In this document: positions 16,465 through 29,160 of the stretch, piece by piece | Position numbering within the stretch: position 1 is the first letter of the stretch | How the letters are laid out: each line of letters begins with the position of its first letter | Notes under the pieces: model-generated | The model's database searches: none | The model's input: only the letters and a program-made list of their open reading frames with translations | Told to the model about the DNA's origin: nothing | Position numbers and translations under genes: made by a program | Assembly: GCA_964531185.1 (NCBI GenBank) | Contig: CAZHCY010000001.1 | Span: forward strand, 1,757-30,916 | Source: an uncultured Desulfovibrionales bacterium | GTDB taxonomy: Bacteria; Desulfobacterota; Desulfovibrionia; Desulfovibrionales; Desulfonatronovibrionaceae | DNA: 29,160 nucleotides | Reading direction: 5' to 3'

Positions 16465-16505
16465 ATAAAAAGCCTTCCGCAGTCTGACTGCGGAAGGCTT
16501 TTTAT
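16465..16505. terminator. Bidirectional intrinsic terminator between proX and the convergent hybrid kinase
   Basis: Perfect inverted repeat ATAAAAAGCCTTCCGCAGTC-T-GACTGCGGAAGGCTTTTTAT with A/T tails on both sides. Confidence 0.9.
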
Positions 16506-16679: not shown

Positions 16680-19600
16680 TCAACCAAGTTTTTTTAATTG
16701 GCCAATATTTTGCTTCAGTTCGGACCAGACCGGCAAGTGTTCATGACATGAGGCCAGGACGAATTCTGCGGTGGCGTGAATTTTCAGCCAGCGGGGCCGA
16801 ACCGGCAGGGTGTCTTCACTGAGATATTTATCCAGGGTCTGGGTGCGCAGGTAGCCGTCCTTTTCCATATAGACATTCCATATCCTGGACTTTTTGGCCA
16901 GATCAGCCTTGGCATTTCCGGTGGTCTGCGCCCAGCACTCCACAGCCAGGTTCATGACACGCACTGCCAGGCGCCGTTTGTCAGAATTTTTTTCCTTTAT
17001 GGACAAGCCATCTGCAAAGCGCTCAATCAAGGCGCGAGCGGTTTTAAGATCTTCAGCAAGAGATTCTGGCGTATGGATCCGGTCGTGGTATCCGGCGGTC
17101 AGGGCGTCTTCCAGATCCTGAAATATCCTGCGGTGGGCGTTGAATTCCTCAAGCATATCAACAAGAGCCGCAAAGTCCGGGCCAATGTCTTGCTCATTTT
17201 TTTCATTATTCAGTGGACAAAAGATCATCACGAACAGGGTTTCCTCCTCCATTTCCAGGCAGGTGACCCGAACATGGCAGGTACAGTGTTGACCGGAAGC
17301 CTTTAGAAGGCTCTGATGCGCAAAGTTCCCTGTTTTCTTTCCGCTTGGTCCGGTATTGCTTAGAAATGACAATAAATCTCCGGATATTTTGCCTTGAGGA
17401 TTCTGTTGATCCGGTAAAAGCCCGGCCAGAGGGCGGCCAAGCAGGCTGTGGACTGTTTGTCCCGACAGAGCCTGGAAGGCCTTGTTGCAGAAAGTGATTT
17501 CGCGACTGAGGTTTACAGCCAGTATGGCTTCATCAAGGGAGTTAAGCATGCCCGAGAGCCGGTGCTGCATAAGCCATAAATCCTGCTCGGTTTCGCGGCG
17601 AAGGACCAGTTCCTGCTTCAGGCGCATGTTTTCGGTAAGCACTGCATAAGCCTGTTTGAGTTTGAGCAGGGTGCGGACCCTGGCCAGGAGTTCTTCCCGG
17701 GAAAAGGGTTTGGTCAGATAGTCGTTGGCTCCGGCTGAAAAACCGGCCACAATATCTTCGACCCGGTTTTTGACTGTAAGCATGATTATCGGCAGAGACT
17801 GTGCCGAGTGCTTTTGCCGCAGTATCCTGCAGACTTCATATCCGCTGGTGCCGGGCATCATGATGTCCAGGATGACCAGGTCCGGACAATCTCCGTCCTG
17901 GATCAGATCCAGGGCATGGCTTCCGTTTCGGGCTGTTTTGAAGCTGATTCCGGCCAGCCGCAGGCAGGAGCCGATCACATGCAGGTTCACAGGCTCGTCA
18001 TCCACAATCAATGCCTGGTATATCCTGCCCCGGGCGCAGCCCGGATCGGCCGAAACATGTTCAGGTTCAAGCGGCAGGACCATGTTGAATTTTTCAGGGA
18101 GAGGTCCTGCTTGTTTTGGTGGAACATCCCCCTGCACGGCTACGCTGCTTGCCGGCAGGGTGAAAGAGAAAACGCTCCCCCGGCCGGGCTGTGAATCCAC
18201 ATGGATGCTGCCGCCGTGCATCTCTACCAGACGTTTTGTGATGGCCAGGCCCAGGCCGGTGCCTCCTGTGGACCTGGTATGCGCTGAAGCAAGTTGTTCG
18301 TGGGAGTTGAAAATTCGTTTCCGGAACTCAGAGGGAATACCGATACCAGTGTCTGCAACGGATACCCGGGTGAAATCGCCTGAATTCCGGGCTGAAACCG
18401 TGATGGCTCCGGATTCTGTGTACTTGATGGCATTGCCCACCAGGTTGAACAGGATCTGTTCCAGCCTTTCCGGATCTGCTTCAACTGCAGGGAAATCGGG
18501 TTCAATGGCATTGATAAGTTTCAGGCCTTTATCCATTGCCATGGCCTGTGAGATGTCCAGGACACCCCGAGCCGTGTCGCAAAGGTTGACCCGGGATTTG
18601 TTTAAAATAATGTCCTGGTGGGTAAGCCGCGAGAAATCCAGGATTTCATCCACTAAGCAGGAAAGTCGTTTTCCGCTGTGCGCAAGCAGTTTCAGGTGGT
18701 TTCCGGCCTCTGCCGACAGCTTGCCTCCTGCCCCGGCTAAAAGCGTCTCTGCGATACTGACGATGCCGGCCAGTGGAGTTTTCAGTTCGTGGGCAGTGTT
18801 GGCCAGAAACTCATCCTTGAGCTTGTTCATGTCCATAAGTTTCAGATTGGCTTTTTCCAGATTGCCGGAGAGTTTTTCAACCCTGGAAAAGGCATCGGCA
18901 AAGGAAGCGGAGATATAAAAGGAGTAGGACAGGATAAAGATGAACACCCCGTAAGGCGCGAAAGATATGGTGCTGGTGATGTTCAGATCAAAAACCATTA
19001 CATCTATTTCAGAGAGAGCCAGGGCCATATATCCGGGAATGAGCATAAGTGCGTTTTTTTCCCGGCGTAGCAGGTCCAGGGCAAAGGCCGCGAAAAGATA
19101 GGCGTAAACGGCCCTGGTGACAAGGAAGTAGAGAAACGGTCCAGGTCCGTAGGCATTGGGCGGGGTGACCAGGATATAGATGATGTAAACCGCTCCAAGG
19201 AACACGACCAGTCGGTTCACGGTTCTGCTGTATTTTTTGGGAAACAGGACATGATAGAATATGACCATCAGGGGAATGGTCAGTCCAAAGGGCAGAAGTG
19301 AAAAATTGATGTACCATTTCCAGGACAGGTCCGGGGCAATGGTGGACATGAGAAAGCCGGAAGACGGGCTGAACAGAGTGACTACGCCCCAGAAAAAACA
19401 GAACAGGCCGAAATACAGGTTTGCGGTTGCGCACCGTCGCCTGGAAAAAAGCACCAGATGATACAGGGCCATGATAAGCAAGGCACCGGCCATAAAGGCC
19501 CCGGAGAAACGGCGGACATCCATCATGCCTTGAATTTGTTCTCCGGTTCCCAGAAAGATACTGGATTTTATCCCGCCCTGGACATTGTGGTGATTGGAAA

Positions 19601-20168
19601 CACTAAGGACGATTTCCAGAGAATCACCATCCACCCCGAAACGGGGCATCAGGATATGGTCTTCAGGCGATTCCTGGGATAGATCTGTACCTGGTTTTCC
19701 GCTGGATGCCACAAGTGTCCGGTTGACGCTTACCTGGCATACAGACAGTATCCCGCTGACCAGCAGGGACAAGGAGGGCTCAGCTAATGAGTCAGGAAGC
19801 CGGACCCGGAGCAGATAAGTCCCGTGGCCATGGGCTGAAAGGGACTCGCCAGCAAAAGTTTTGCCGCGCCATATCCCGGGAACATGGAAAAAATCCTGCT
19901 TTTCCCGGCTGGACAGGACCATGGCAGCAGGATCAAGCAATTCCCCCCAGATGAATTCCCACTCTCCGTCCAGCCTGAACGGTCCTTGGGAAAAATCCCA
20001 TTCTGTAAGATCAAGTACGCCGCCATGAGCCTGGGGCGAATCCATGGAAGGGGCGCAGCCCATGATCCCTGCTAAAATGATAAAAAGGGCAATGAATCGG
20101 GCGTGAACAGGTACGGGACTGTAATGAGCAAAAGTCAGATCCTGGCTTGCAGGCATTTTCTTTGGCAT
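16680..20168 (-). CDS. 7TM-DISM-type hybrid histidine kinase (extracellular beta domain-7TM-HisKA-HATPase-REC-PAS) with C-terminal ChiS-like DNA-binding domain
   Basis: Lipobox-like IMGC; GGVLDLTEWDF..LDGEWEFIW; about 7 TM helices; EFLANTAHELKTPL; NLVGNAIKYT; DTGIGI; GTGLGL; REC with LVILDIMMP and YLTKPF; PAS (LNSLDEAILAVN..FCNKAF); C-terminal IWNVYMEKDGYLRTQTLDKYL..LPVRPRW. Confidence 0.85.
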   Translation of the reverse strand: MPKKMPASQDLTFAHYSPVPVHARFIALFIILAGIMGCAPSMDSPQAHGGVLDLTEWDFSQGPFRLDGEWEFIWGELLDPAAMVLSSREKQDFFHVPGIWRGKTFAGESLSAHGHGTYLLRVRLPDSLAEPSLSLLVSGILSVCQVSVNRTLVASSGKPGTDLSQESPEDHILMPRFGVDGDSLEIVLSVSNHHNVQGGIKSSIFLGTGEQIQGMMDVRRFSGAFMAGALLIMALYHLVLFSRRRCATANLYFGLFCFFWGVVTLFSPSSGFLMSTIAPDLSWKWYINFSLLPFGLTIPLMVIFYHVLFPKKYSRTVNRLVVFLGAVYIIYILVTPPNAYGPGPFLYFLVTRAVYAYLFAAFALDLLRREKNALMLIPGYMALALSEIDVMVFDLNITSTISFAPYGVFIFILSYSFYISASFADAFSRVEKLSGNLEKANLKLMDMNKLKDEFLANTAHELKTPLAGIVSIAETLLAGAGGKLSAEAGNHLKLLAHSGKRLSCLVDEILDFSRLTHQDIILNKSRVNLCDTARGVLDISQAMAMDKGLKLINAIEPDFPAVEADPERLEQILFNLVGNAIKYTESGAITVSARNSGDFTRVSVADTGIGIPSEFRKRIFNSHEQLASAHTRSTGGTGLGLAITKRLVEMHGGSIHVDSQPGRGSVFSFTLPASSVAVQGDVPPKQAGPLPEKFNMVLPLEPEHVSADPGCARGRIYQALIVDDEPVNLHVIGSCLRLAGISFKTARNGSHALDLIQDGDCPDLVILDIMMPGTSGYEVCRILRQKHSAQSLPIIMLTVKNRVEDIVAGFSAGANDYLTKPFSREELLARVRTLLKLKQAYAVLTENMRLKQELVLRRETEQDLWLMQHRLSGMLNSLDEAILAVNLSREITFCNKAFQALSGQTVHSLLGRPLAGLLPDQQNPQGKISGDLLSFLSNTGPSGKKTGNFAHQSLLKASGQHCTCHVRVTCLEMEEETLFVMIFCPLNNEKNEQDIGPDFAALVDMLEEFNAHRRIFQDLEDALTAGYHDRIHTPESLAEDLKTARALIERFADGLSIKEKNSDKRRLAVRVMNLAVECWAQTTGNAKADLAKKSRIWNVYMEKDGYLRTQTLDKYLSEDTLPVRPRWLKIHATAEFVLASCHEHLPVWSELKQNIGQLKKLG

Positions 20169-20358
20169 GAGCGTGATCTTTCACTGAAATGTTTCCTCCT
20201 CATTTTCCAATAGAAACCAGCAGCTGATATGGACATCCTGAGGAAACGGATAATGATGGAAAGATCTTTATATGGTTTTGGCCAGAGAAGAACAAGCTTT
20301 CACTCATTAGAAACCAGACCATTTTTTTGCCCCGGAATGGTTCACGTCCATGGATATT

Positions 20359-22089
20359 TCAGTCCCTGAATTTCAATGTAACGGTACATTCTCCGTTTCT
20401 GGTCTCAACCCTCACATCATCGGCAAGATGATCAACCAGAAATCCTGCCATGGCTTGAGCCCCTTTGACTTCATTGAACACCTGATGAGGATCCGGCCGA
20501 GTCTCCGGAATTATCAGCGGGCGTCCCATGTAAACCACAACTATCCGGCAAAGATATTCATCAAAAACCGCTCTAAATTCCAGCTCTTTGCTGAACGAGT
20601 CCATTAATTTGTAAGCCTGAATGGCATCCAGAAGTTCATATGTAGCATGGTTGAGGCGACGGATAACCTCGACCCTGGCTCCCCATTGATGCCCGAGATG
20701 CCAGAGTATTTCATTTATTTTCTGAGGCCACTTGTTATCCATGTCAATTTTTCTGGTTACTGATTTGTGAATCTTCAGGCGAAAAAGCGTGTTCAGTCCT
20801 ATGGCTACCACCAGGGTGGCCGCCACAGTGGTAGATAGAGGCGAAAATATTATGTTTTCATCGCTGTCACGTGCTATGTACAGCAACTCATGACCCATGC
20901 CGGCTATGAGAGAAAGGCCTATTGTGATGCTTTTGCGTGAGTCAAGAAGACGTGAGGTGATTATCTTTATGCCGCCTACAATGATAAAAGAAGCTACAAA
21001 TATCAGTACAGCTCCGATTACAGGCATGGAAAGAGAAATCCAAAATGATGTAAAAGGTGGAAAAAACGCCAGGGCGATAAAAAGCCCTCCAAGAACATAT
21101 GCCACTATACGGCTGGTGACTCCACTGGCCTGTGCAAGGCCGATGGCGCCGCCGCTGGCGGTCTGGGCCACTCCATTGATCAGGGAACCCAGGGCATTGG
21201 TTATCCCTTCGGCCAGAAGGCCCCGTTTGATCCCTTCCATGTCAGGCCTTTTCCATGAGGAGTCATTGGCCCTTTGGGCAACGGTCAGAACGCCAAAGCA
21301 GTTGAATGAAAGAGCTAGTCCCAGAAGAACAAAATGCGGCAGCATTTCCCAATTAAAAGACCAACCGAACCGGGCTATCGGCGGCAATGCCAAGACTGGA
21401 ACCTGTGAGATTTCATTCATAAGCGATTCATTGACAACCCCTTGCCAGACCGCAAAGATCTGCCCCACAAGCAAACCGGCAAAAACCGCAAAAGTTCTGG
21501 CTTTTCCATGGCCCCACACATTTACCTCCACGATGACCGAAAGGGTTAGAAGCCCCGTCAGCAGAGTGCGGGGCTCTCCTTGAAGAGGGGTGTCAAGTGC
21601 CAGAAAAGCCCTCATGCCGATAAGGCCAAGGCCAAGTCCGAGGATTAAAACTATGAGCCCGGCAATTTCGACGGGGAAAAAGGGGCGCAGCCTTATGATA
21701 AGGCGCGAAGCTGCAATCTGAACAAAGGCGGCAATGGCCATCATGCCAAAGGCAAGGTCGAGACCTCCCATATTGACAGCGGCGATGGAGGCTGGAAATG
21801 CAATGGCGGACGTATGCATGGGGCTGAACAATCCGATGCCGATTCCGCCCCGGTTTAAGGCCTGCAGGATAACACCACAGCCGGCAGCCACCATTGTCAG
21901 GGCGACCAGGCCTGCTGCTCCGGCAGCGTCAAGTCCGGCCTGACGGGCAAGAAGCACCGGCAGGGTCATTATGGATGCAAGAAAAGCCAGCTGCTGTAAA
22001 GCAACCATAACGGTCATGCCCCAGGGGGGACGTTCATTAATCCAGTATGTAATTCCGTCAGGCCTGAGAGGCCTCTGGTTTTCACTCAT
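20359..22089 (-). CDS. NCS2 (xanthine/uracil permease) family protein with C-terminal RsbW/HATPase_c_2-like extension
   Basis: YWINERPPW, IGIGLFSP, FFPVEIAGLIV, GLLAEGITNALGSLING, GVTSRIV, PVIGAVL topology; about 135 extra C-terminal residues. Confidence 0.75.
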   Translation of the reverse strand: MSENQRPLRPDGITYWINERPPWGMTVMVALQQLAFLASIMTLPVLLARQAGLDAAGAAGLVALTMVAAGCGVILQALNRGGIGIGLFSPMHTSAIAFPASIAAVNMGGLDLAFGMMAIAAFVQIAASRLIIRLRPFFPVEIAGLIVLILGLGLGLIGMRAFLALDTPLQGEPRTLLTGLLTLSVIVEVNVWGHGKARTFAVFAGLLVGQIFAVWQGVVNESLMNEISQVPVLALPPIARFGWSFNWEMLPHFVLLGLALSFNCFGVLTVAQRANDSSWKRPDMEGIKRGLLAEGITNALGSLINGVAQTASGGAIGLAQASGVTSRIVAYVLGGLFIALAFFPPFTSFWISLSMPVIGAVLIFVASFIIVGGIKIITSRLLDSRKSITIGLSLIAGMGHELLYIARDSDENIIFSPLSTTVAATLVVAIGLNTLFRLKIHKSVTRKIDMDNKWPQKINEILWHLGHQWGARVEVIRRLNHATYELLDAIQAYKLMDSFSKELEFRAVFDEYLCRIVVVYMGRPLIIPETRPDPHQVFNEVKGAQAMAGFLVDHLADDVRVETRNGECTVTLKFRD

Positions 22090-22182
22090 GAGTTATCTTT
22101 CAGCTTTATGAATTGCCTGCATTAAAGGCGCTTGCCGCCAGACTTATTAAAAGCGGAAATAAAAAATTAAGTCCTTCCATCA

Positions 22183-22599
22183 CTATTGAGTAAGCACGGC
22201 CCGCACGAATACATCATGCATCTTGTTGCCACAGTGCGCCTCGCCGTTGCCGAAGTTCATCCCCCAGGCACAGGCCGGATAATCAGGTTCAGTGGTGGAC
22301 GACCAATACCAGTCGCTTTTCACGTGCATGGCCTGGAGACAGGGCGAGTGGTACAACCCCTCAAGTTCACCCCTGCTCGGCAGCCGAAAGCCGGAATGTC
22401 CGCTTAATGTTCGTCCCTGGACATGACGCATAGCGTCGTCCCAGTTCATGGGACCATCTGAATCCTTCTGCCATACCAGTCCCGTGGCGTTGTCCGTCAC
22501 TGTCCTGTCTCCATTGTCCACGCAGCGGCCGGCATGGACACTGTCTGACCACAGCAAGCAGAATACAGAAACCAGGGCAATCAGCAGTGTTTTTTTTAT
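22183..22599 (-). CDS. DUF1566 (Lcl C-terminal domain) secreted protein; probable ATA start
   Basis: DNGDRTVTDNATGLVWQK, NWDDA, FRLPSRGEL, WYWSSTT, AWGMNFGNG, VRAV; in-frame extension upstream of the ORF call gives (I/M)KKTLLIALVSVFCLLWSDSVHA. Confidence 0.8.
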   Translation of the reverse strand: MKKTLLIALVSVFCLLWSDSVHAGRCVDNGDRTVTDNATGLVWQKDSDGPMNWDDAMRHVQGRTLSGHSGFRLPSRGELEGLYHSPCLQAMHVKSDWYWSSTTEPDYPACAWGMNFGNGEAHCGNKMHDVFVRAVLTQ

Positions 22600-22636
22600 A
22601 AGACTTCCCTCCGCATGATTTTTACGGGATAAAAAA

Positions 22637-23737
22637 CTATTGGGCCGGAATGGTCAGCTGCAGGGCACTGGGAGCCTGGTCGTCCTCCAGCAGGGTAAAA
22701 GCCAGCATAATAAAGGAAAAGACCCTTTTGGTTTCCAGATCGCTGTCATCCACCCAGAACCAGTGGCCGCGATACCGGACCGAGGTAAAGGCTTGATCCG
22801 GCCGGGTTGATGAAGACTTGACCGCGACAGCGTCCAGACCTGCTTTCTCAGAATGCCGGGCAGCTCCTGGAATGGCCCGGCCCTGAGTCAAATCCTGTTC
22901 AGGAATTTGCACCCGGGCGGCCACGGCCGCCAGCATCTGCATCAGGGAAAATGTCTGCAATGCGATCATGTTGTGGCTGTCAGCCGTGGGAAAGCCGGAA
23001 GTCAGCATATACTCGTTCCGGGCAGGCTCCAGTCCAAGCAGGTCTTGCAGTTCTCTGACCAGAGCATTGGTTTCCCCTGAGGGATACCGTCCTCCCAGAG
23101 CCAGCATCAGGCTGGGAGATTCTCCGGGCTGGAGTACCCGGCTGGTCACATGCACCGCATCCAAGCCCTGGAGCCTGGAGAAAATTTGCACCACTTTTTG
23201 AAAATCAGACTGGACCGGAACATGGGCGCCGGGAATATGGGCTTCGTTGCGCAGGCCGTTGATGCTGCGCACACTAAGTGTGAACAGGAACCGGGCTGAG
23301 ATTCCTGAATTCAGGCCCAGCAGCACATTGCGCACCGGAACAGGCGAAATTATACCCTTGCGGAACGCGGCACCGGTCAAGGGCCTGTAGGTGATGGTGG
23401 GGCGATCAGTATATTTGCCAGAGATCCCGAGATCCAGCTTGCTGGAGTCACTGGAGCCGGACAAGTCGAACATGGACCGTGAAAATCCCATATTCCCCCC
23501 TGTTTCCAGGGAATAGGCCGCAACAATGTCTCCCACGTCCATGAAGAACAGCGGCTCCACATAGCGGATCTTGACGATATTGAGCAGGATCTGCTCTTTC
23601 CAGGACTGTGTGATGGAGGCATTGTACCCGGTTCGATCCGATGTCATTTTTGCCGGGCCGATGGATGCGCACCCGGAAAAAAGAACCAGCACGCATATCA
23701 ACAGAATCCGGCTTGCTCCCGAATATATCTGCGTCAC
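22637..23737 (-). CDS. Conserved hypothetical lipoprotein
   Basis: Lipobox LFSG-C; motifs SWKEQILLNIVKIRY, DRPTITYRPLTG, VRYRGHWFWVDDSDLETKRVF; ATGA overlap with the upstream hydrolase stop. Confidence 0.7.
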   Translation of the reverse strand: MTQIYSGASRILLICVLVLFSGCASIGPAKMTSDRTGYNASITQSWKEQILLNIVKIRYVEPLFFMDVGDIVAAYSLETGGNMGFSRSMFDLSGSSDSSKLDLGISGKYTDRPTITYRPLTGAAFRKGIISPVPVRNVLLGLNSGISARFLFTLSVRSINGLRNEAHIPGAHVPVQSDFQKVVQIFSRLQGLDAVHVTSRVLQPGESPSLMLALGGRYPSGETNALVRELQDLLGLEPARNEYMLTSGFPTADSHNMIALQTFSLMQMLAAVAARVQIPEQDLTQGRAIPGAARHSEKAGLDAVAVKSSSTRPDQAFTSVRYRGHWFWVDDSDLETKRVFSFIMLAFTLLEDDQAPSALQLTIPAQ

Positions 23738-25038
23738 GGCAATACCCTCCAGGAAAAGACCTCATCCAGCCAGTCAAACAGAACCTGTCCCACCAGACTG
23801 CGATTTTCCAGGATGCAGTGGTTGGCCGCGCCCTCATTGGCCGGAGTAACCACCATCATTTTCAAGGCGTTGGGGAAATTGTCCATGGCGATTTTCTGCT
23901 GGCGCTGCACCTCCAGGCTTTTGTATTCGCCCTGGCCCACGATGATCAGTGCCGGAGCATCTATCCGGGCCGGGTCAAAGGTGTTCCCCTTGTTCGCCTC
24001 AATCAGGGCGGAAGGCTTGTCCTGGGGTACCCCGTACCGCCAGCAGATGGACCTGACCACGTCGCGGTGAAAATCGGACCAGGCCTCCATCTCCTCCCGG
24101 GTGGCCAGGGCAGCGGGCATGGTGGCGAACAGCGGATGGGCGTCCACCACGGCGGAGGTCATTACAACTGCTTTGATGCGCGGGTCGTGCATGGCAGCCT
24201 GGGGCACGAACAGCCCGCCGCCGCTGAATCCATAGGCGGCCAGGCGCTTTTCATCCACTCCGTCCAGGGTCAAAATATGATCCACGACCTCCATTAAGGC
24301 AATGTTTGTGTCTGTGCGGAAAACCCGGCCCTCAAAGGGCAGCAGTCCCTGACCGGGCAGATCCACTGTGACGAAATTGTACCCCCTGGCATGGGCCTGC
24401 GGGGCGATGAAAAAGAACAGATCCTCGGCAAAGGTTTCACCGCCGCCGATCATGAGCAGGGTCGGGGCGTCGTTATTGTCTTTGGCCGCGGGCCGGAAAT
24501 ACCCCGGCAGGACCGTGCCCTCAAAAGGAACTTCAAAATACTCCAAAGGCGGGTCCAGCAGTTTGCCGGTCTCGCGCATCAGGCTGCGCACCTTCATGCT
24601 GGTGGGTTTGAACAAAGGATTGTCCGGAAGCATGGAGATGACGGAAAACCGGTAATAGTTCACCGCGCGCAGCAGCTGATTCCTGGCGCTGACCACATGC
24701 CCGTGGGCCAAAGATTCCCGTCCGCGGGCCTCCACGCGCTCGGCCAGGGCCAGCCATTCCCGCTGCCAGCTTGCCGCATCCCCGTCCTTGATTTGCGAAG
24801 CTGCGTAGAAGGCTTCCCCGATCTCCGCCCCTCCGGTGGACACCGAGTCCAGGATCAGGTTCCCGAAATGGAAGTCCATGTCTCCGTCGTCAAAAAAATA
24901 CGAAAACTCGGTGGCGTGCATGTCCGAGGTTTCCAGGGCCTCACCGGAAGCCTGGACGCTTGTGCTCCACGTCTGCAAAACAGCCACGGCCAGCAGACAG
25001 ACAAGACATCTGGCAGCAAAATATATCACACGTTTCAT
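23734..25038 (-). CDS. Secreted alpha/beta hydrolase (DHPON hydrolase/FrsA-like, S9-clan fold)
   Basis: Sec signal MKRVIYF...SVQA; EVPFEGTVLPGYF, GGGETFAED, DLPGQG, nucleophile GFSGG, ANHC His motif; SD AAGGAGG before ATG 25038. Confidence 0.85.
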   Translation of the reverse strand: MKRVIYFAARCLVCLLAVAVLQTWSTSVQASGEALETSDMHATEFSYFFDDGDMDFHFGNLILDSVSTGGAEIGEAFYAASQIKDGDAASWQREWLALAERVEARGRESLAHGHVVSARNQLLRAVNYYRFSVISMLPDNPLFKPTSMKVRSLMRETGKLLDPPLEYFEVPFEGTVLPGYFRPAAKDNNDAPTLLMIGGGETFAEDLFFFIAPQAHARGYNFVTVDLPGQGLLPFEGRVFRTDTNIALMEVVDHILTLDGVDEKRLAAYGFSGGGLFVPQAAMHDPRIKAVVMTSAVVDAHPLFATMPAALATREEMEAWSDFHRDVVRSICWRYGVPQDKPSALIEANKGNTFDPARIDAPALIIVGQGEYKSLEVQRQQKIAMDNFPNALKMMVVTPANEGAANHCILENRSLVGQVLFDWLDEVFSWRVLP

Positions 25039-25087
25039 GATCGATCCTCCTTGTTGGCTGGAAATCTTTTTTGCGGTAATCAAAAGA

Positions 25088-26821
25088 TTACGGCTTGGCC
25101 CGCTGGTCCAGCCAGTTCAGAATGCGCTCGCTGGAAACCACAGGCGCTCCGAGCTGGCAGTGGAACTGCCCGCCCTGGGAGGCGTCAAATTCCAGGTATG
25201 TCTTTTGGCTGTTCAGGGCATTGAACACCTTTTTGGCCTGGGCATTGGACCCGGCAACCTGGTCCTGGCTGGAATTGACCACCAGCGTTTCGGTCTGGAT
25301 ATCGCCGATGACGTCGGCCAGGGTGTATTCCTGCAGTTTCCGGAACAGCTCACAGGGGGTTGCGGCCTGGAATGTCCAGAGCATCTGGGTGATAAATTGA
25401 TGCACATCCGGGCGTTCATCCATTTCCCGGAGTACAAGGGCGTCAATATCAGCCGTGCAACCGCCGGACTCCACGGCCTGGCGCACCGCGTCCGGGAATT
25501 TGGTCATGGTTCCGTCGAACACGCTGTACACCCCGCCGTCCAATATTCCCCACTGGATTCGTTTTTCAAAGGCCAGGGCCCGGGGCACCAGGTATCCGCC
25601 CATGGAATATCCCAGCAGGGCAATGCGCTCCGGGTCCACGTCCGGGCGGGTCAGGGCGTAATCCACCACGGGCGTGACCACGTTTTCCCAGTCATGCCGG
25701 AACGCCAGCTTCTGGAGGCTGATCATCTCGCCCTGGCCCGGGCCTTCGAAAATGAGGCAGTTGTATCCGCGCTGCACGGCCTGGGCCGCCAGAATAAAGT
25801 AGAGGTCCTCGGCAGTAGCGTCCAGACCGGTCTGGATCAGAAGCAGCGGCCTTTTTTCGGAGCTGTTGTCCGGAGTGATAAAATAACCGGGCAGGGTGGT
25901 CTGTTCATAGGGAATGCGCACCGGTTCGATCAGGCCGCCGGAAAGGCCCGCGGCCTTGAGAAAGGTATCCCGGCCGTTTTGCCAGGCGATCAGGCCTCGC
26001 GGGTCCTTGTCGTACAAGTATATGGACGCGGCCCGGAAATAGTTGGTGGCCCGGAAATAGGCCTGCTTCGCGGCGATGTCATGACCTGCGGCTACAAATT
26101 CATCGGCTGTGCCCCGGACTTTCAGGGCCATGGAGTTCCAGGACCGGTACCAGCTTTCCTGGTCAAAATCCTCCACCTGGCCGGTTATGGTCAGCAATTC
26201 GCCCAGGTCCGCACCGCCCGAGGCGATCAGGCCGAAGCGCCACAGGCTCTGAAAGACAAAAGCGGGGTCATTGAACAGAAATCCGCTCATGTTCCGCTGA
26301 TGAATGTCGCGCGGCTCCTTGTCGGCCTGCCCGCGGTAGTTGTCCCAGTGTTCCACTTTTCCACTGATATAGACATGGCCCTGAAGGGGGAAATGGGTGT
26401 GGATAAAGACCCACTCCTTGTCCACGCCGGTCAGGTTTTCCAGAGAATCGGCAATGGCGGTCATCATTCCAGCCACGTCCTGTTCGCTAAAAAAACCAGG
26501 AACGTACAGGTCCACGAAAATGGGTTTGTCAGAGACCGGCTCGCCCATGCAGTGGATGGCGTCGAAGGTCTGCCAGTAGTAGGTCAGAAACCGCTCGTCG
26601 ATCCCGGTGGCCGCAGTGACGTCCCGGCTGAGCTGAGCCAAAACCTTCGGCACGTCCAGGTCTGAACGGGCATAGGTGATTCTGACCATGGGGTCGGCCG
26701 GGTCAATGCCGCCCGCTCCCCATGCCTTGTCCCGGCCTGTTAGAGGTGATAAAAGAAGACTTAAGATGAAAATTAAAACTCCAGGCAAAAGTATTAAAGA
26801 TAGCCCGGAAAAGGATTTCAT
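25088..26821 (-). CDS. Secreted alpha/beta hydrolase with N-terminal tautomerase/MIF-like domain
   Basis: Hydrophobic N-terminal signal; residues 44-159 show a beta-alpha-beta x2 pattern; RIPYEQTTLPGYF, TGLDATAED, FEGPGQG, GYSMG, SQDQV, FHCQ. Confidence 0.8.
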   Translation of the reverse strand: MKSFSGLSLILLPGVLIFILSLLLSPLTGRDKAWGAGGIDPADPMVRITYARSDLDVPKVLAQLSRDVTAATGIDERFLTYYWQTFDAIHCMGEPVSDKPIFVDLYVPGFFSEQDVAGMMTAIADSLENLTGVDKEWVFIHTHFPLQGHVYISGKVEHWDNYRGQADKEPRDIHQRNMSGFLFNDPAFVFQSLWRFGLIASGGADLGELLTITGQVEDFDQESWYRSWNSMALKVRGTADEFVAAGHDIAAKQAYFRATNYFRAASIYLYDKDPRGLIAWQNGRDTFLKAAGLSGGLIEPVRIPYEQTTLPGYFITPDNSSEKRPLLLIQTGLDATAEDLYFILAAQAVQRGYNCLIFEGPGQGEMISLQKLAFRHDWENVVTPVVDYALTRPDVDPERIALLGYSMGGYLVPRALAFEKRIQWGILDGGVYSVFDGTMTKFPDAVRQAVESGGCTADIDALVLREMDERPDVHQFITQMLWTFQAATPCELFRKLQEYTLADVIGDIQTETLVVNSSQDQVAGSNAQAKKVFNALNSQKTYLEFDASQGGQFHCQLGAPVVSSERILNWLDQRAKP

Positions 26822-26913
26822 TGTTACCTTCCTTGTTTATAATCTGAGTGTCTTTGCTTCTGTTTTTGCTTTTACCTCATCATACATTCCGAGCAGCATA
26901 CAGTTGTCAATCA

Positions 26914-26938
26914 GAATTCACGTGAATTCCCGTGAATT
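26914..26938. promoter_or_regulatory. Candidate operator: perfect 16-bp palindrome plus 10-bp-phased direct repeat
   Basis: GAATTCACGTGAATTC (26914-29); CGTGAATT at 26921 and 26931; lies 3 nt upstream of a minus-strand TTGACA (26910-05). Confidence 0.45.
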
Positions 26939-27089: not shown

Positions 27090-27122
27090 GAAAGCCCCGG
27101 GCAGTGCATGCCCAGGGCTTTC
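27090..27122. terminator. Intrinsic terminator-like hairpin
   Basis: GAAAGCCC-C-GGGCA gtgca TGCCC-A-GGGCTTTC inverted repeat downstream of the rhuM remnant. Confidence 0.6.
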
Positions 27123-27164: not shown

Positions 27165-27410
27165 CTACCCGGTGTGAACAGTTTCGGCGTGGGCCTTGGC
27201 GATTTCCGCCGTAACCTTTCCCTTTCCTTGCAGGATTTGCCGATCGCTGAACTCTAAAAAAGCGTCGAGCCGCTTGGCCCAGTCCTCCATGGTCATCGGA
27301 ATCTTGCGGCGGGCGCGGTCCTCGGCCAGATCGAGATAGGCGTTGACGATTCGGCCAAGGGACTCCAGTTCGTCACGGGTTCGGATCAGTTTTTTGTCGC
27401 GATCAGTCAT
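27165..27410 (-). pseudogene. rhuM: RhuM-family (virulence RhuM / DNA-binding) gene remnant
   Basis: DELESLGRIVNAYLDLAEDRARRKIPMTMEDWAKRLDAFLEF..ILQGKGKVTAEIAKAHAE is the recognisable C-terminal part of RhuM proteins, but the ORF is only 81 aa and lacks the usual EFEKY tail. Confidence 0.75.
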
Positions 27411-27487: not shown

Positions 27488-29065
27488 TCATCTCTTTCTT
27501 CTTACGGCCGGCTTGGCGCAGAGCGTGTCGAGAATCTCAAGAAGGCGTTTTTTGCGGAAATGTTCTTTTCGCAAGCCAGCAAGATACTGAGCCCATTCTG
27601 CTTCTCTCTTCTCCCGGATCATGACCTTGGCAGCTTTCCGCAGATAACCCGCCGCCTCGTGATATGCGCTCGGCTTGACCCGGGCTATCTCCTGTTCGGC
27701 CAGGTCCTTCCAGATCGCCACGGCTCGGTCCGGGGAGTAAGTCGTTATGGCCGTCGCGACCTTTTGGTCCAGTGAGCTGTGCCGAGATATGTGTTTTCTG
27801 GAGGCACTGTCATACCAGCGCAACACTTCCTCGGGCTGTTCCTCCTGGATGGCGATTTCGATCAGTGTGGAAAACTTGGGGTAGGTGTCACGCCGTTCGG
27901 GTTTCGGAGCATCCTTGCCAGGAGCCGGCAAGGGCCATTCGGGATGTTTCCAGGGAAGCTGGCCGCTGGCCAGGTGTTCAAGCAGGGCGTGGCGGATTTT
28001 CGGCCATGCACCGAGGCGGTCCGCTACATCCTTACAATTCTCGAACGTCCTCACTGAGGGGCTGCGAACAAACTCCTCTATCTGGAGGATGGCCACTGAG
28101 GACCAGTCTTGTTGACGGGTTCTGATGGTCAGCAGCGTCCCCCGAAGCTGGGAGGCGATCCCCGAATATTCCTTCTGTGTTGCTGCAATGCCCTTACGAA
28201 TCCAGCGTTCCGCATCTTCATAGTGTTCCAAGGCAATCAGGCGGTTGACGAGACGCACATAGCTGTCTGTTTTTTGGGCTTCGGTTTCGCAAAGGGGGAT
28301 GATCTCCTCGTTCCTGCCGGCCTGTTCCAGGGCGTGGATAGTCCAGTCGGCTATAAGGTCTCGCTTGTAGTCACGGCTGAAGTCGCCCTTACGAAAATCA
28401 TCTGTGCCCAGCCGCTTGAGAAGACTGTCAGCCACAGCATTCCAGGCGAACACGGGATGCTCTTGCTGCAGGTAGTCGACAAGGTCGTCGCAAAGGTCGA
28501 AGGGGTCGTCGAGTACCAGATCCAAGGCCCACATGATCCTTTCAACCTCTGACAGAGAAGAGGCCGCCAAAGCGCGCGGAAGCACCCCTATGCAACCGGA
28601 TACCTCCTCAGCCGTTTCGCCCTCATCGTGGCTCATTTCAATTTGGCTGATGCCCCTATCGATAAGCTCCTTGCCAAGGGAGAGCACTTCGTCAGCATGG
28701 CCAGCGACCAGCAAGGCTTCAAGCCTGTCGCGGATGCCGGAGTAGTCAGGGGTGTGACCTTCGTCGTCCCAGTGATTCCGCCAGGCAGGTTCGCTGCTGA
28801 CCTCGCAAATTTCCCTGCGCAGGCGGGCTCTGAGCGAGGCGACATCTCCGCAGTGTACTTGGACCATGTCCAGGAGTGCAGACGCGATCCCTGGATAAGT
28901 CTCCACAAACCCAAGGATCATTTTGACCAGCTCCGCTTTCGTCTTCTTGTTGAGCAGATTCTCCACCTGAACCAGAATCTTTCTGGAGAGATCCGGCCCG
29001 TATACTTCGTCGTCATCCCAGGAAAGGGAGTCGAAAAGTTGCGATTTGTTCAGTTTACTGGACAT
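27488..29065 (-). CDS. Helical hypothetical protein resembling the C-terminal portion of SWIM zinc-finger family proteins (no SWIM motif present)
   Basis: EPAWRNHWDDEGHTPDYSGIRDRLEALL..GHADEVL, SHDEGETAEEV, YVRLVNRLI, AYHEAAGYLRK, KKRLLEILD; no CxC-xn-CxH; probable start ATG 29065 (MSSKLNK). Confidence 0.6.
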   Translation of the reverse strand: MSSKLNKSQLFDSLSWDDDEVYGPDLSRKILVQVENLLNKKTKAELVKMILGFVETYPGIASALLDMVQVHCGDVASLRARLRREICEVSSEPAWRNHWDDEGHTPDYSGIRDRLEALLVAGHADEVLSLGKELIDRGISQIEMSHDEGETAEEVSGCIGVLPRALAASSLSEVERIMWALDLVLDDPFDLCDDLVDYLQQEHPVFAWNAVADSLLKRLGTDDFRKGDFSRDYKRDLIADWTIHALEQAGRNEEIIPLCETEAQKTDSYVRLVNRLIALEHYEDAERWIRKGIAATQKEYSGIASQLRGTLLTIRTRQQDWSSVAILQIEEFVRSPSVRTFENCKDVADRLGAWPKIRHALLEHLASGQLPWKHPEWPLPAPGKDAPKPERRDTYPKFSTLIEIAIQEEQPEEVLRWYDSASRKHISRHSSLDQKVATAITTYSPDRAVAIWKDLAEQEIARVKPSAYHEAAGYLRKAAKVMIREKREAEWAQYLAGLRKEHFRKKRLLEILDTLCAKPAVRRKR

Positions 29066-29160
29066 TTTGCTTAAGCCCTCTGTGCCAATGAGAGTGAGAC
29101 ACCAACCGTTTGAATAATTAAGCAAAGGCGGTTAAGGTGAATCACATGATGTATACAACA

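Follow-up and report, generated by a model that had tools for sequence, protein, structure and literature searches.

This study concerns a run of six consecutive minus-strand genes, here called A to F, in a window of 29,160 nucleotides from an uncultured, sulfate-reducing Desulfovibrionales bacterium (contig CAZHCY010000001.1; the window is the whole stretch of DNA that was analysed). The best explanation of the data is that A, B, C and F are the core of a horizontally mobile "sense and secrete" module, in which F, a membrane-bound regulator that ends in a DNA-binding domain of the ChiS family, on balance probably activates the operon of exported hydrolases directly, through an operator in front of A. 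In the mechanism proposed, F would bind two direct TTCACG repeats upstream of A while seated in the membrane, and bound F would activate transcription of A, B and C; since no terminator was found in the internal gaps, transcription probably continues into D, E and F itself. Phosphorylation of the receiver domain (REC) of F would damp its DNA binding, as in ChiS. A and B would be exported serine alpha/beta hydrolases of a clade that includes DHPON hydrolase, Ayg1 and FUS2, whose characterised members have enolisable 1,3-dicarbonyl substrates. The tautomerase-fold domain of A could present the keto form to the hydrolase or could just oligomerise the enzyme, and C would be an obligate lipoprotein partner of undescribed fold.

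Which of the six genes belong together was judged from loci collected with lipoprotein C as bait and then with the alignment of its family. This yielded 90 loci, each taken with up to 10 kb of DNA to either side and screened with every part of the six proteins. In the Desulfobacterota clade of this set (28 loci in which C is at least 43% identical), B lies directly upstream of C in 27 loci and A with its N-terminal domain is present in 12. An ortholog of F, with the same sensor (43-75% identity) and a ChiS domain, is present in 9 of the 28, all nine of which also have A, and in none of the roughly 15 loci that have only B and C (Fisher 8e-6, for loci that are kin and not independent). Five loci have F upstream of A; in the rest, as in the window, F lies downstream of C. 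The strand is the same throughout, and the linkage of F to A-B-C has thus survived rearrangement. In an independent sample, which agreed with this picture, among 201 genomes of the class the ChiS-type domain was found in 22 and the N-terminal domain of A in 18, with both in 10 (hypergeometric 7e-7, for related genomes that are not independent). The two domains lie within 13 kb of each other in all ten of these genomes, and within 7.5 kb on the same strand in eight. The first-pass annotation had linked the kinase to exported hydrolases and had expected all six families to co-occur as one system; the linkage holds across genera, but the six-family system was not borne out by the neighbourhood search, in which E was found in none of the 90 loci and D in one only (L003). 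Judged by gene content, the conserved core is the four genes A, B, C and F, to which add-ons are joined.

The operator was predicted by comparing the 330 nt that precede A across 11 loci, which represent at least two classes. All 11 share, without gaps, the pattern TTTCACG, 4 bases, TTCACGTG, 9 bases, TTGAC(A), with no variation in the columns TCAC, TT.AC and TTGAC and with flanks that diverge. The TTCACG repeats are spaced by 4 nt, giving a 10-bp period, and stand 10 bp upstream of TTGACA. In the 2.59-Mb genome the exact repeat pair is found at a single place. A position weight matrix of the operator scores this site at 43.5 bits and the next independent site at 15.2, with only the reverse reading of the same palindrome (21.3 bits) in between. 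Among all fetched loci the exact pattern was found solely upstream of A. When regions beside F orthologs from genomes without A were examined, 4 of 7 carried the same motif, again followed by TTGAC. In two of these genomes the site precedes genes for large secreted FG-GAP repeat proteins, and beside another F ortholog without A it precedes a phage-tail-collar protein gene with an autotransporter behind it. One genome with both A and F carries a second such site, ahead of a TolC-HlyD-MacB-like efflux operon. These sites before other targets (TTCACG-N4-TTCACGTG-N9-TTGAC) are at L134:1138-9359, L139:9068-11837, L137:2229-8180 and L141:5514-11041. The motif thus travels with F and not with the hydrolases, which is the best available evidence that F binds the site, and F is predicted to bind the operator upstream of A. 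The presence of the same site before other exported proteins suggests that F and its operator are a conserved cassette whose targets vary. As a separate observation, the 16-mer TGCACGAATTTTCACG is found on five small contigs of the same genome (C143, C205, C227, C288 and C324); it is probably part of a repeat element unrelated to the operator.

Pfam domains of F are 7TMR-DISM_7TM, HisKA, HATPase_c, REC and PAS. Its last ~100 residues belong to no Pfam family, but they match the DNA-binding domain of ChiS (PDB 7KPO, the identity of which was confirmed in its paper). The phmmer alignment with chain A of 7KPO has an E value of 2.2e-14 over 97 residues (8-104 of 108 aligned) and stops one residue short of the stop codon of F, at the extreme C-terminus. 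This placement is alike in 8 orthologs, and the domain is present as a single copy in the genome. The call of a ChiS-like kinase in the first-pass annotation is therefore supported. The cytoplasmic order of F, histidine kinase, REC, PAS and DNA-binding domain, is identical to that of ChiS, and orthologs conserve its H-box HELKTP (HELKT, including the phosphatase Thr), its REC Asp and its lipobox Cys. ChiS requires R1068, R1074, K1078, R1090 and R1092 for DNA binding (PMC8092284; bioRxiv 10.1101/2020.01.10.902320), and the equivalents of K1078 and R1090, the two well-conserved ones, are retained in F.

The input side of F consists of a lipobox, a periplasmic domain of ~180 residues and then seven helices. 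A lipobox-like Cys ends the N-terminal hydrophobic segment in 9 of 9 orthologs, and 7TMR-DISM_7TM (PF07695) matches residues 224-419 at 2.6e-14, above the cut-off. Residues 1-223 had no match to DISMED1 or DISMED2 in Pfam; a language-model search gave, as a lead only, a resemblance of the periplasmic domain to galactose-binding-like/7TMR-DISMED2 clusters. With the sensor alone as query, only the nearest relative and distant 7TMR-DISM proteins were reached.

Natural variants of F suggest that the kinase is not essential to its function. Beside A-B-C, F orthologs of 552, 654 and 771 aa were found (L002:4925-6583, L032:4667-6631 and L049:4267-6582) that have no histidine kinase or REC domain between the sensor with its seven helices and the DNA-binding domain; one of them retains PAS. 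The ~655-aa form is present in seven sampled genomes, mostly of one genus, and all of the kinase-less variants have open frames. Because such variants exist in nature, the kinase core of F appears to be dispensable. This fits the data for ChiS, in which kinase activity is dispensable for activation and phosphorylation of REC is inhibitory (PMC8092284; bioRxiv 10.1101/2020.01.10.902320).

The comparison with ChiS of Vibrio cholerae extends to the promoter. Both proteins are membrane-anchored and combine HisKA-HATPase, REC and PAS domains with a C-terminal DNA-binding domain, and in both systems two close sites, predicted in the case of F, lie just before a -35-like element of a neighbouring operon that encodes exported proteins. 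ChiS uses two sites that are phased with the -35 element and contacts RNA polymerase (PMC8092284; bioRxiv 10.1101/2020.01.10.902320). However, the input of ChiS is a periplasmic domain and HAMP governed by its chitin-binding protein CBP, unlike the lipobox, periplasmic domain and 7TMR-DISM of F, and the targets of ChiS are chitobiose utilisation genes whereas the predicted targets of F are alpha/beta hydrolases and a lipoprotein. F also differs from ChiS in having natural variants that lack kinase and receiver altogether. No gene for a cbp-like solute-binding protein and no chb-like gene was found in the cluster or the related loci. The parallel to the ChiS logic of Vibrio that was drawn in the first-pass annotation stands for the ChiS domain, the linked exported hydrolases and the conserved operator, and is not supported for the membrane partner and the six-gene unit.

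It should be noted that the combination of 7TMR-DISM with a ChiS DNA-binding domain has been catalogued by Klancher et al. 2021 (Fig. 5A, Data Set S1; PMC8092284), deltaproteobacterial entries included, with an architecture identical to that of F and the DNA-binding domain likewise at the C-terminus. That catalogue lists proteins, without operator, target gene or gene neighbourhood, and the literature found on the ChiS family gave no targets outside Vibrio and no operator or neighbourhood for the 7TMR-DISM type. The earlier claim that no such pathway had been described is consequently valid for the target genes and not for the regulator architecture.

Most useful among the new findings are the predicted operator, a regulon of one operon in this genome, the shift in targets of the same regulator-operator pair in other genomes, and the F variants without a kinase. 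To our knowledge, ChiS is the only member of its DNA-binding family that has been studied, and all experiments concern chitin sensing in Vibrio. A second ChiS-type promoter, with a concrete operator, a single predicted target operon and cultured organisms that carry orthologous clusters (Desulfovibrio sp. 7SRBS1 and Desulfatitalea alkaliphila M08but, for instance, the second of which has the 552-aa kinase-less F), makes the mechanism of such membrane regulators outside Vibrio directly testable. The kinase-less forms show that a sensor can be joined directly to the DNA-binding domain, which bears on how a signal passes through these proteins. The work also points to three uncharacterised families: exported hydrolases that belong to the DHPON/FUS2 clade, a tautomerase-fold domain that is secreted and has its key Pro in an internal position, and a widespread lipoprotein. 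For annotation, the NCS2 and Lcl_C genes (E and D) are not to be read as parts of the system.

The mobility of the module is suggested by its composition and distribution. Guanine-plus-cytosine (GC) content is 0.58-0.59 in A and B, with third-position GC of 0.73, compared to a genome mean of 0.506, and 0.58 is reached by only 0.4% of 1.5-kb windows of the genome; GC is not native-like in A to D and is native-like in E (0.511). Within the family, 2 of 25 genomes hold the domain of A and with it the cluster; a sample of 16 genomes from the order's other families did not contain the domain. Desulfatitalea alkaliphila, by name a member of another class, gave the best matches. The high GC of A and B, the sparse distribution within the family and a RhuM fragment at the border of the segment argue for horizontal transfer. 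The runs that hold the sequence are microbial-mat and hypersaline-lake metagenomes.

Several observations weigh against direct control of the hydrolases by F. A occurs without the ChiS-type domain in 7 of 17 sampled A-holding genomes besides this one, so F is not obligatory for A; conversely, the ChiS-type domain occurs without A in twelve sampled genomes, and the operator motif was not found in the five loci with A only that were searched. F orthologs appear to drive other, quite different exported proteins from the same operator elsewhere, and the sensor is thus not tied to this hydrolytic pathway and need not sense the substrate of the hydrolases. In contrast to A and B, F has a native-like GC of 0.527. 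At the positions of ChiS R1068, R1074 and R1092, which are 3 of the 5 residues needed for DNA binding, F has K, Q and L. The best -10-like hexamers stand 19-21 nt after TTGAC compared to the usual 17, which suggests that TTGAC may be part of the operator and makes its assignment as a -35 element tentative. A simple promoter scan did not call the A promoter, and the assignment of TTGACA rests on conservation only. Finally, the sequence was found in DNA runs only and in no RNA runs.

A and B are both FrsA-like by Pfam (PF06500, above the cut-off; 7e-10 for B) and also match general alpha/beta-hydrolase models. In A the hydrolase domain spans residues ~170-577, and Ser406 (GYSMGG), Asp520 and His554 are invariant in 31 homologs. 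In 24 B-type orthologs the Ser of GFSGG and a His-Cys pair are invariant, and the acid residue of B is probably Glu386. N-termini of the A family are typical signal peptides that end in Ala-x-Ala and are followed by GG(I/L)(D/N)PADPM; the signal peptide of B ends in VQA. The model of A has a predicted local distance difference test score (pLDDT) of 86 over the whole protein, and its hydrolase part is nearest to SMU_737 (3FNB) and DHPON hydrolase (2JBW), both by structure (template-modelling (TM) score 0.82-0.89) and by sequence, whereas WdYg1p/Ayg1p, AntI and FrsA give lower scores (0.68-0.79). Among reviewed proteins, the fungal FUS2, psoB, PyiE, ORFZ and CcsE are 28-31% identical to A, with TM scores of 0.83-0.89 and root-mean-square deviations of 2.1-2.5 Å. 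PyiE and ORFZ are needed for pyrrolone ring formation, in which tautomer control is important (PMC7898483). By resemblance only, the characterised relatives of A would point to 1,3-dicarbonyl chemistry rather than to plain ester hydrolysis.

A shares with DHPON hydrolase, Ayg1p/WdYg1p, AntI and the FUS2/PyiE/ORFZ/CcsE "hydrolyases" the alpha/beta-hydrolase fold, an N-terminal helical lid and a Ser-Asp-His triad. However, A and B differ from this group in being exported and bacterial, in anaerobes and outside biosynthetic clusters, and A has in addition the N-terminal tautomerase-fold domain. A further difference is the invariant His-Cys pair. Cys follows the catalytic His in 47 of 47 aligned A- and B-type sequences (His554-Cys555 in A, 25157-25162; His422-Cys423 in B, 23818-23823), and no counterpart of this pair was established in known relatives. 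Acyl-homoserine lactone lactonase was rejected as a function of A and B, because the match to NCBIfam UilS scored 33 bits against a cut-off of 400 bits.

The tautomerase call for the N-terminus of A in the first-pass annotation was sustained. Pfam gave nothing significant for this domain, tautomerase models included, and a profile of 24 homologs had MIF as its sole PDB match (E 0.1). Aligned by hhalign with nine bacterial MIF-family proteins from related genomes, the profile gave a probability of 73% and an E value of 3e-5 over 94 columns, with the invariant Pro44 of A (DPM motif) opposite Pro1 of MIF. A search of 1.8 billion representative proteins found 131 relatives, stand-alone secreted forms among them, and many relatives are cytoplasmic proteins of ~126 aa in which the equivalent Pro is residue 2, after Met. 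A Met-Pro start is a hallmark of tautomerase-superfamily enzymes. In the model the domain has two strand-helix-strand units, at residues 46-86 and 101-142, with pLDDT of 85-96. On the strength of the MIF profile match, the Met-Pro homologs and the two modelled units, the domain is accepted as having a tautomerase fold. It resembles the superfamily (MIF, 4-OT, cis-CaaD) in its two beta-alpha-beta units, its length of ~115 residues and an invariant Pro that aligns with the catalytic Pro1; it differs in that this Pro is not N-terminal and in that the domain is fused to a hydrolase and exported. Exported A forms always have an Asp before this Pro, which stands ~8 residues past the predicted signal-peptidase site and is internal as encoded. 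From its position, Pro44 of exported A would be either non-catalytic or exposed by a second cleavage.

Lipoprotein C belongs to a family of more than 1000 homologs, none of which has a name or a Pfam domain. Across 33 of the homologs, which represent several phyla, the lipobox Cys23 is invariant and Gly22 nearly so. Profile searches of Pfam, NCBIfam and PDB gave no match for C. The model of the whole protein (pLDDT 79; predicted template-modelling score 0.72) had no match in PDB by Foldseek (best E 0.3), and in an exhaustive search of 48,161 representative PDB chains the best Z score was 3.5, lower than the 7-8 that is usual as background. Searches of AlphaFold DB clusters and the ESM Atlas yielded uncharacterised relatives only. 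A relation to FliF and SpoIIIAG was not accepted, as the Foldseek rows were weak (E above 1). The model contains a long hairpin at residues 66-119 with strands of ~23 residues, an alternating hydrophobic pattern and a variable tip with pLDDT below 50, which suggests a hairpin that may insert into a membrane. Distant homologs in Verrucomicrobiota, Acidobacteriota and Gammaproteobacteria adjoin sulfatases, PGAP1-like hydrolases and DUF481 barrels, so the C family seems to accompany exported hydrolases in general.

Several other explanations of the cluster were weighed. The one closest to the first-pass annotation, in which the six genes together make up a single dedicated pathway parallel to chitin sensing in Vibrio, with E as the membrane partner or co-sensor of the kinase and D as a component, is now quite improbable. 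The co-orientation of the genes, the short gaps without internal hairpins, the loss of nucleobase-binding residues in E and its extra cytoplasmic domain would all suit such a pathway; however, related loci are without E and, save for one, without D, and L003 has an Abhydrolase_3 esterase gene at the position of E. The E subfamily also stands alone in Desulfonatronum and beside a beta-carbonic anhydrase gene in a Chromatiaceae genome, the GC of E is native in contrast to that of A to D, and a gene for a cbp-like solute-binding protein is missing. A nutritional role, in which A, B and accessory esterases free fatty acids or alcohols from external esters for a fatty-acid-oxidising sulfate reducer and C binds lipid, is unlikely. 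It draws on the company of the B-C pair, which occurs with classical carboxylesterases (COesterase in 9 and Abhydrolase_3 in 4 of the 90 loci) and also in Syntrophus, Smithella and Syntrophorhabdus genomes, and on the annotation of FrsA as an esterase. However, lipases resemble A and B less closely than C-C hydrolases and hydrolyases do, genes for transporters or beta-oxidation are not linked, and a tautomerase-fold domain would have no role in ester hydrolysis.

Envelope defence was given a similarly low probability. Here F would sense an exogenous, membrane-active enolisable compound (a tetramic acid, a 3-oxo-acyl amide or a polyketide) that A and B destroy in the periplasm, with C as an outer-membrane pore or carrier by means of its amphipathic beta-hairpin. 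For every one of the nearest characterised relatives of A the chemistry is of the 1,3-dicarbonyl or pyrrolone type (PMC7898483), and A bears a fused tautomerase-fold domain. The second F-type operator before an efflux operon, the hairpin in the model of C and the lack of linked uptake or catabolic genes agree with this explanation as well, but other targets of F are adhesin-like (FG-GAP, autotransporter), the tip of the hairpin is modelled with low confidence, and distant C homologs stand beside sulfatases. A bolder version, which is very doubtful, is a periplasmic detoxification module of undescribed kind, directed at 1,3-dicarbonyl toxins such as tetramic acids in alkaline mats, in which Pro1 of A would be freed by Asp-Pro cleavage, C would be an outer-membrane pore of new fold, and lipid-anchored F, able to signal without its kinase, would switch both on. 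Because signal peptidase is unable to cleave in front of Pro, generating Pro1 of A would take a second step.

Outside the conserved core, D is a small exported protein (Pfam Lcl_C, 1e-21). Its signal peptide and a 37-nt gap to C are obtained only with an ATA start at 22599, eight bases after a GGAGG site (GGAGGG), and the first canonical start, TTG 22557, falls within the signal peptide; three other assemblies have the same ATA. Gene content marks D as an optional accessory gene. E matches Xan_ur_permease in Pfam (5e-43), while its TIGR03173 score of 183 is far under the cut-off of 414. UraA E241, H245 and E290, in transmembrane helices 8 and 10, align with N, V and G in E, which at these residues agrees with the earlier call of a degenerate NCS2 permease. 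Comparison with its subfamily indicates that E is not a decayed gene: proteins of ~575 aa with the same C-terminal extension (~145 aa) are found in Desulfonatronum (78% identity), Geobacter, Chromatiaceae and others. Their contexts are unrelated to the cluster. In the Chromatiaceae genome (L128:6307-8731) the E-type NCS2 gene starts right at the stop of the beta-carbonic anhydrase gene. The arrangement hints that the subfamily may move bicarbonate or another small anion and not nucleobases. Nothing was found that would make E the membrane counterpart of the chitin-binding protein with which ChiS works. E is absent from the related loci, and its widespread subfamily stands in unrelated contexts. 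In the closest relative, L003, which is of the same family, the Abhydrolase_3 esterase gene takes the place that E has here, and E is probably a lineage-specific passenger in its stead, outside the conserved system.

The layout of the cluster is given in Table 1. The six co-oriented genes, their gaps, the bidirectional terminator and the palindrome in the promoter region had all been described in the first-pass annotation and were found again in the open reading frame (ORF) listing and the sequence, and its domain calls were all present in Pfam and the other searches. The start of B at ATG 25038, which leaves a gap of 49 nt to A, agrees with an independent gene call on identical contigs. Hairpins were sought in the C-D, D-E and E-F gaps and none was found. 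The bidirectional terminator is common to the cluster and the convergent opuA operon. The palindrome in the A promoter region is perfect over 16 bp.

Table 1. Features of the six-gene cluster and its borders (positions in the window)
Feature	Position	Strand	Remarks
A, exported tautomerase-like/hydrolase fusion	25088..26821	-	577 aa
Tautomerase/MIF-like N-terminal domain of A	26348..26692	-	residues 44-158
B, exported FrsA-like serine hydrolase	23734..25038	-	ORF to 25083; likely start ATG 25038, 434 aa
C, lipoprotein of uncharacterised family	22637..23737	-	4-nt overlap with B
D, small exported Lcl_C (formerly DUF1566) protein	22183..22599 (or 22183-22557)	-	
E, NCS2-fold membrane protein	20359..22089	-	93-nt gap to D
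F, hybrid sensor kinase/transmembrane transcription regulator	16680..20168	-	190-nt gap to E
ChiS-family DNA-binding domain of F	16683..16979	-	residues ~1064-1161
Predicted F operator/promoter element	26905..26936	-	TTCACG 26931-26936 and 26921-26926; palindrome 26914-26929; TTGACA 26905-26910
Bidirectional intrinsic terminator	16465..16505	.	perfect 20-nt inverted repeat, 1 nt between arms, A run and T run
Strong terminator upstream of the A promoter	27090..27122	-	14-bp stem, 9 GC pairs, then T run

The terminator upstream of the A promoter closes the upstream genes and insulates that promoter. Before it, at the upstream border of the high-GC A-B-C segment, an 81-aa ORF (27165-27410) is a gene fragment that matches only positions 173-239 of the 252-position RhuM family profile. 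Further upstream of the cluster, at 27488-29125, a 545-aa protein that matches no Pfam or NCBIfam family is encoded with a GC content of 0.557, above the genome mean.

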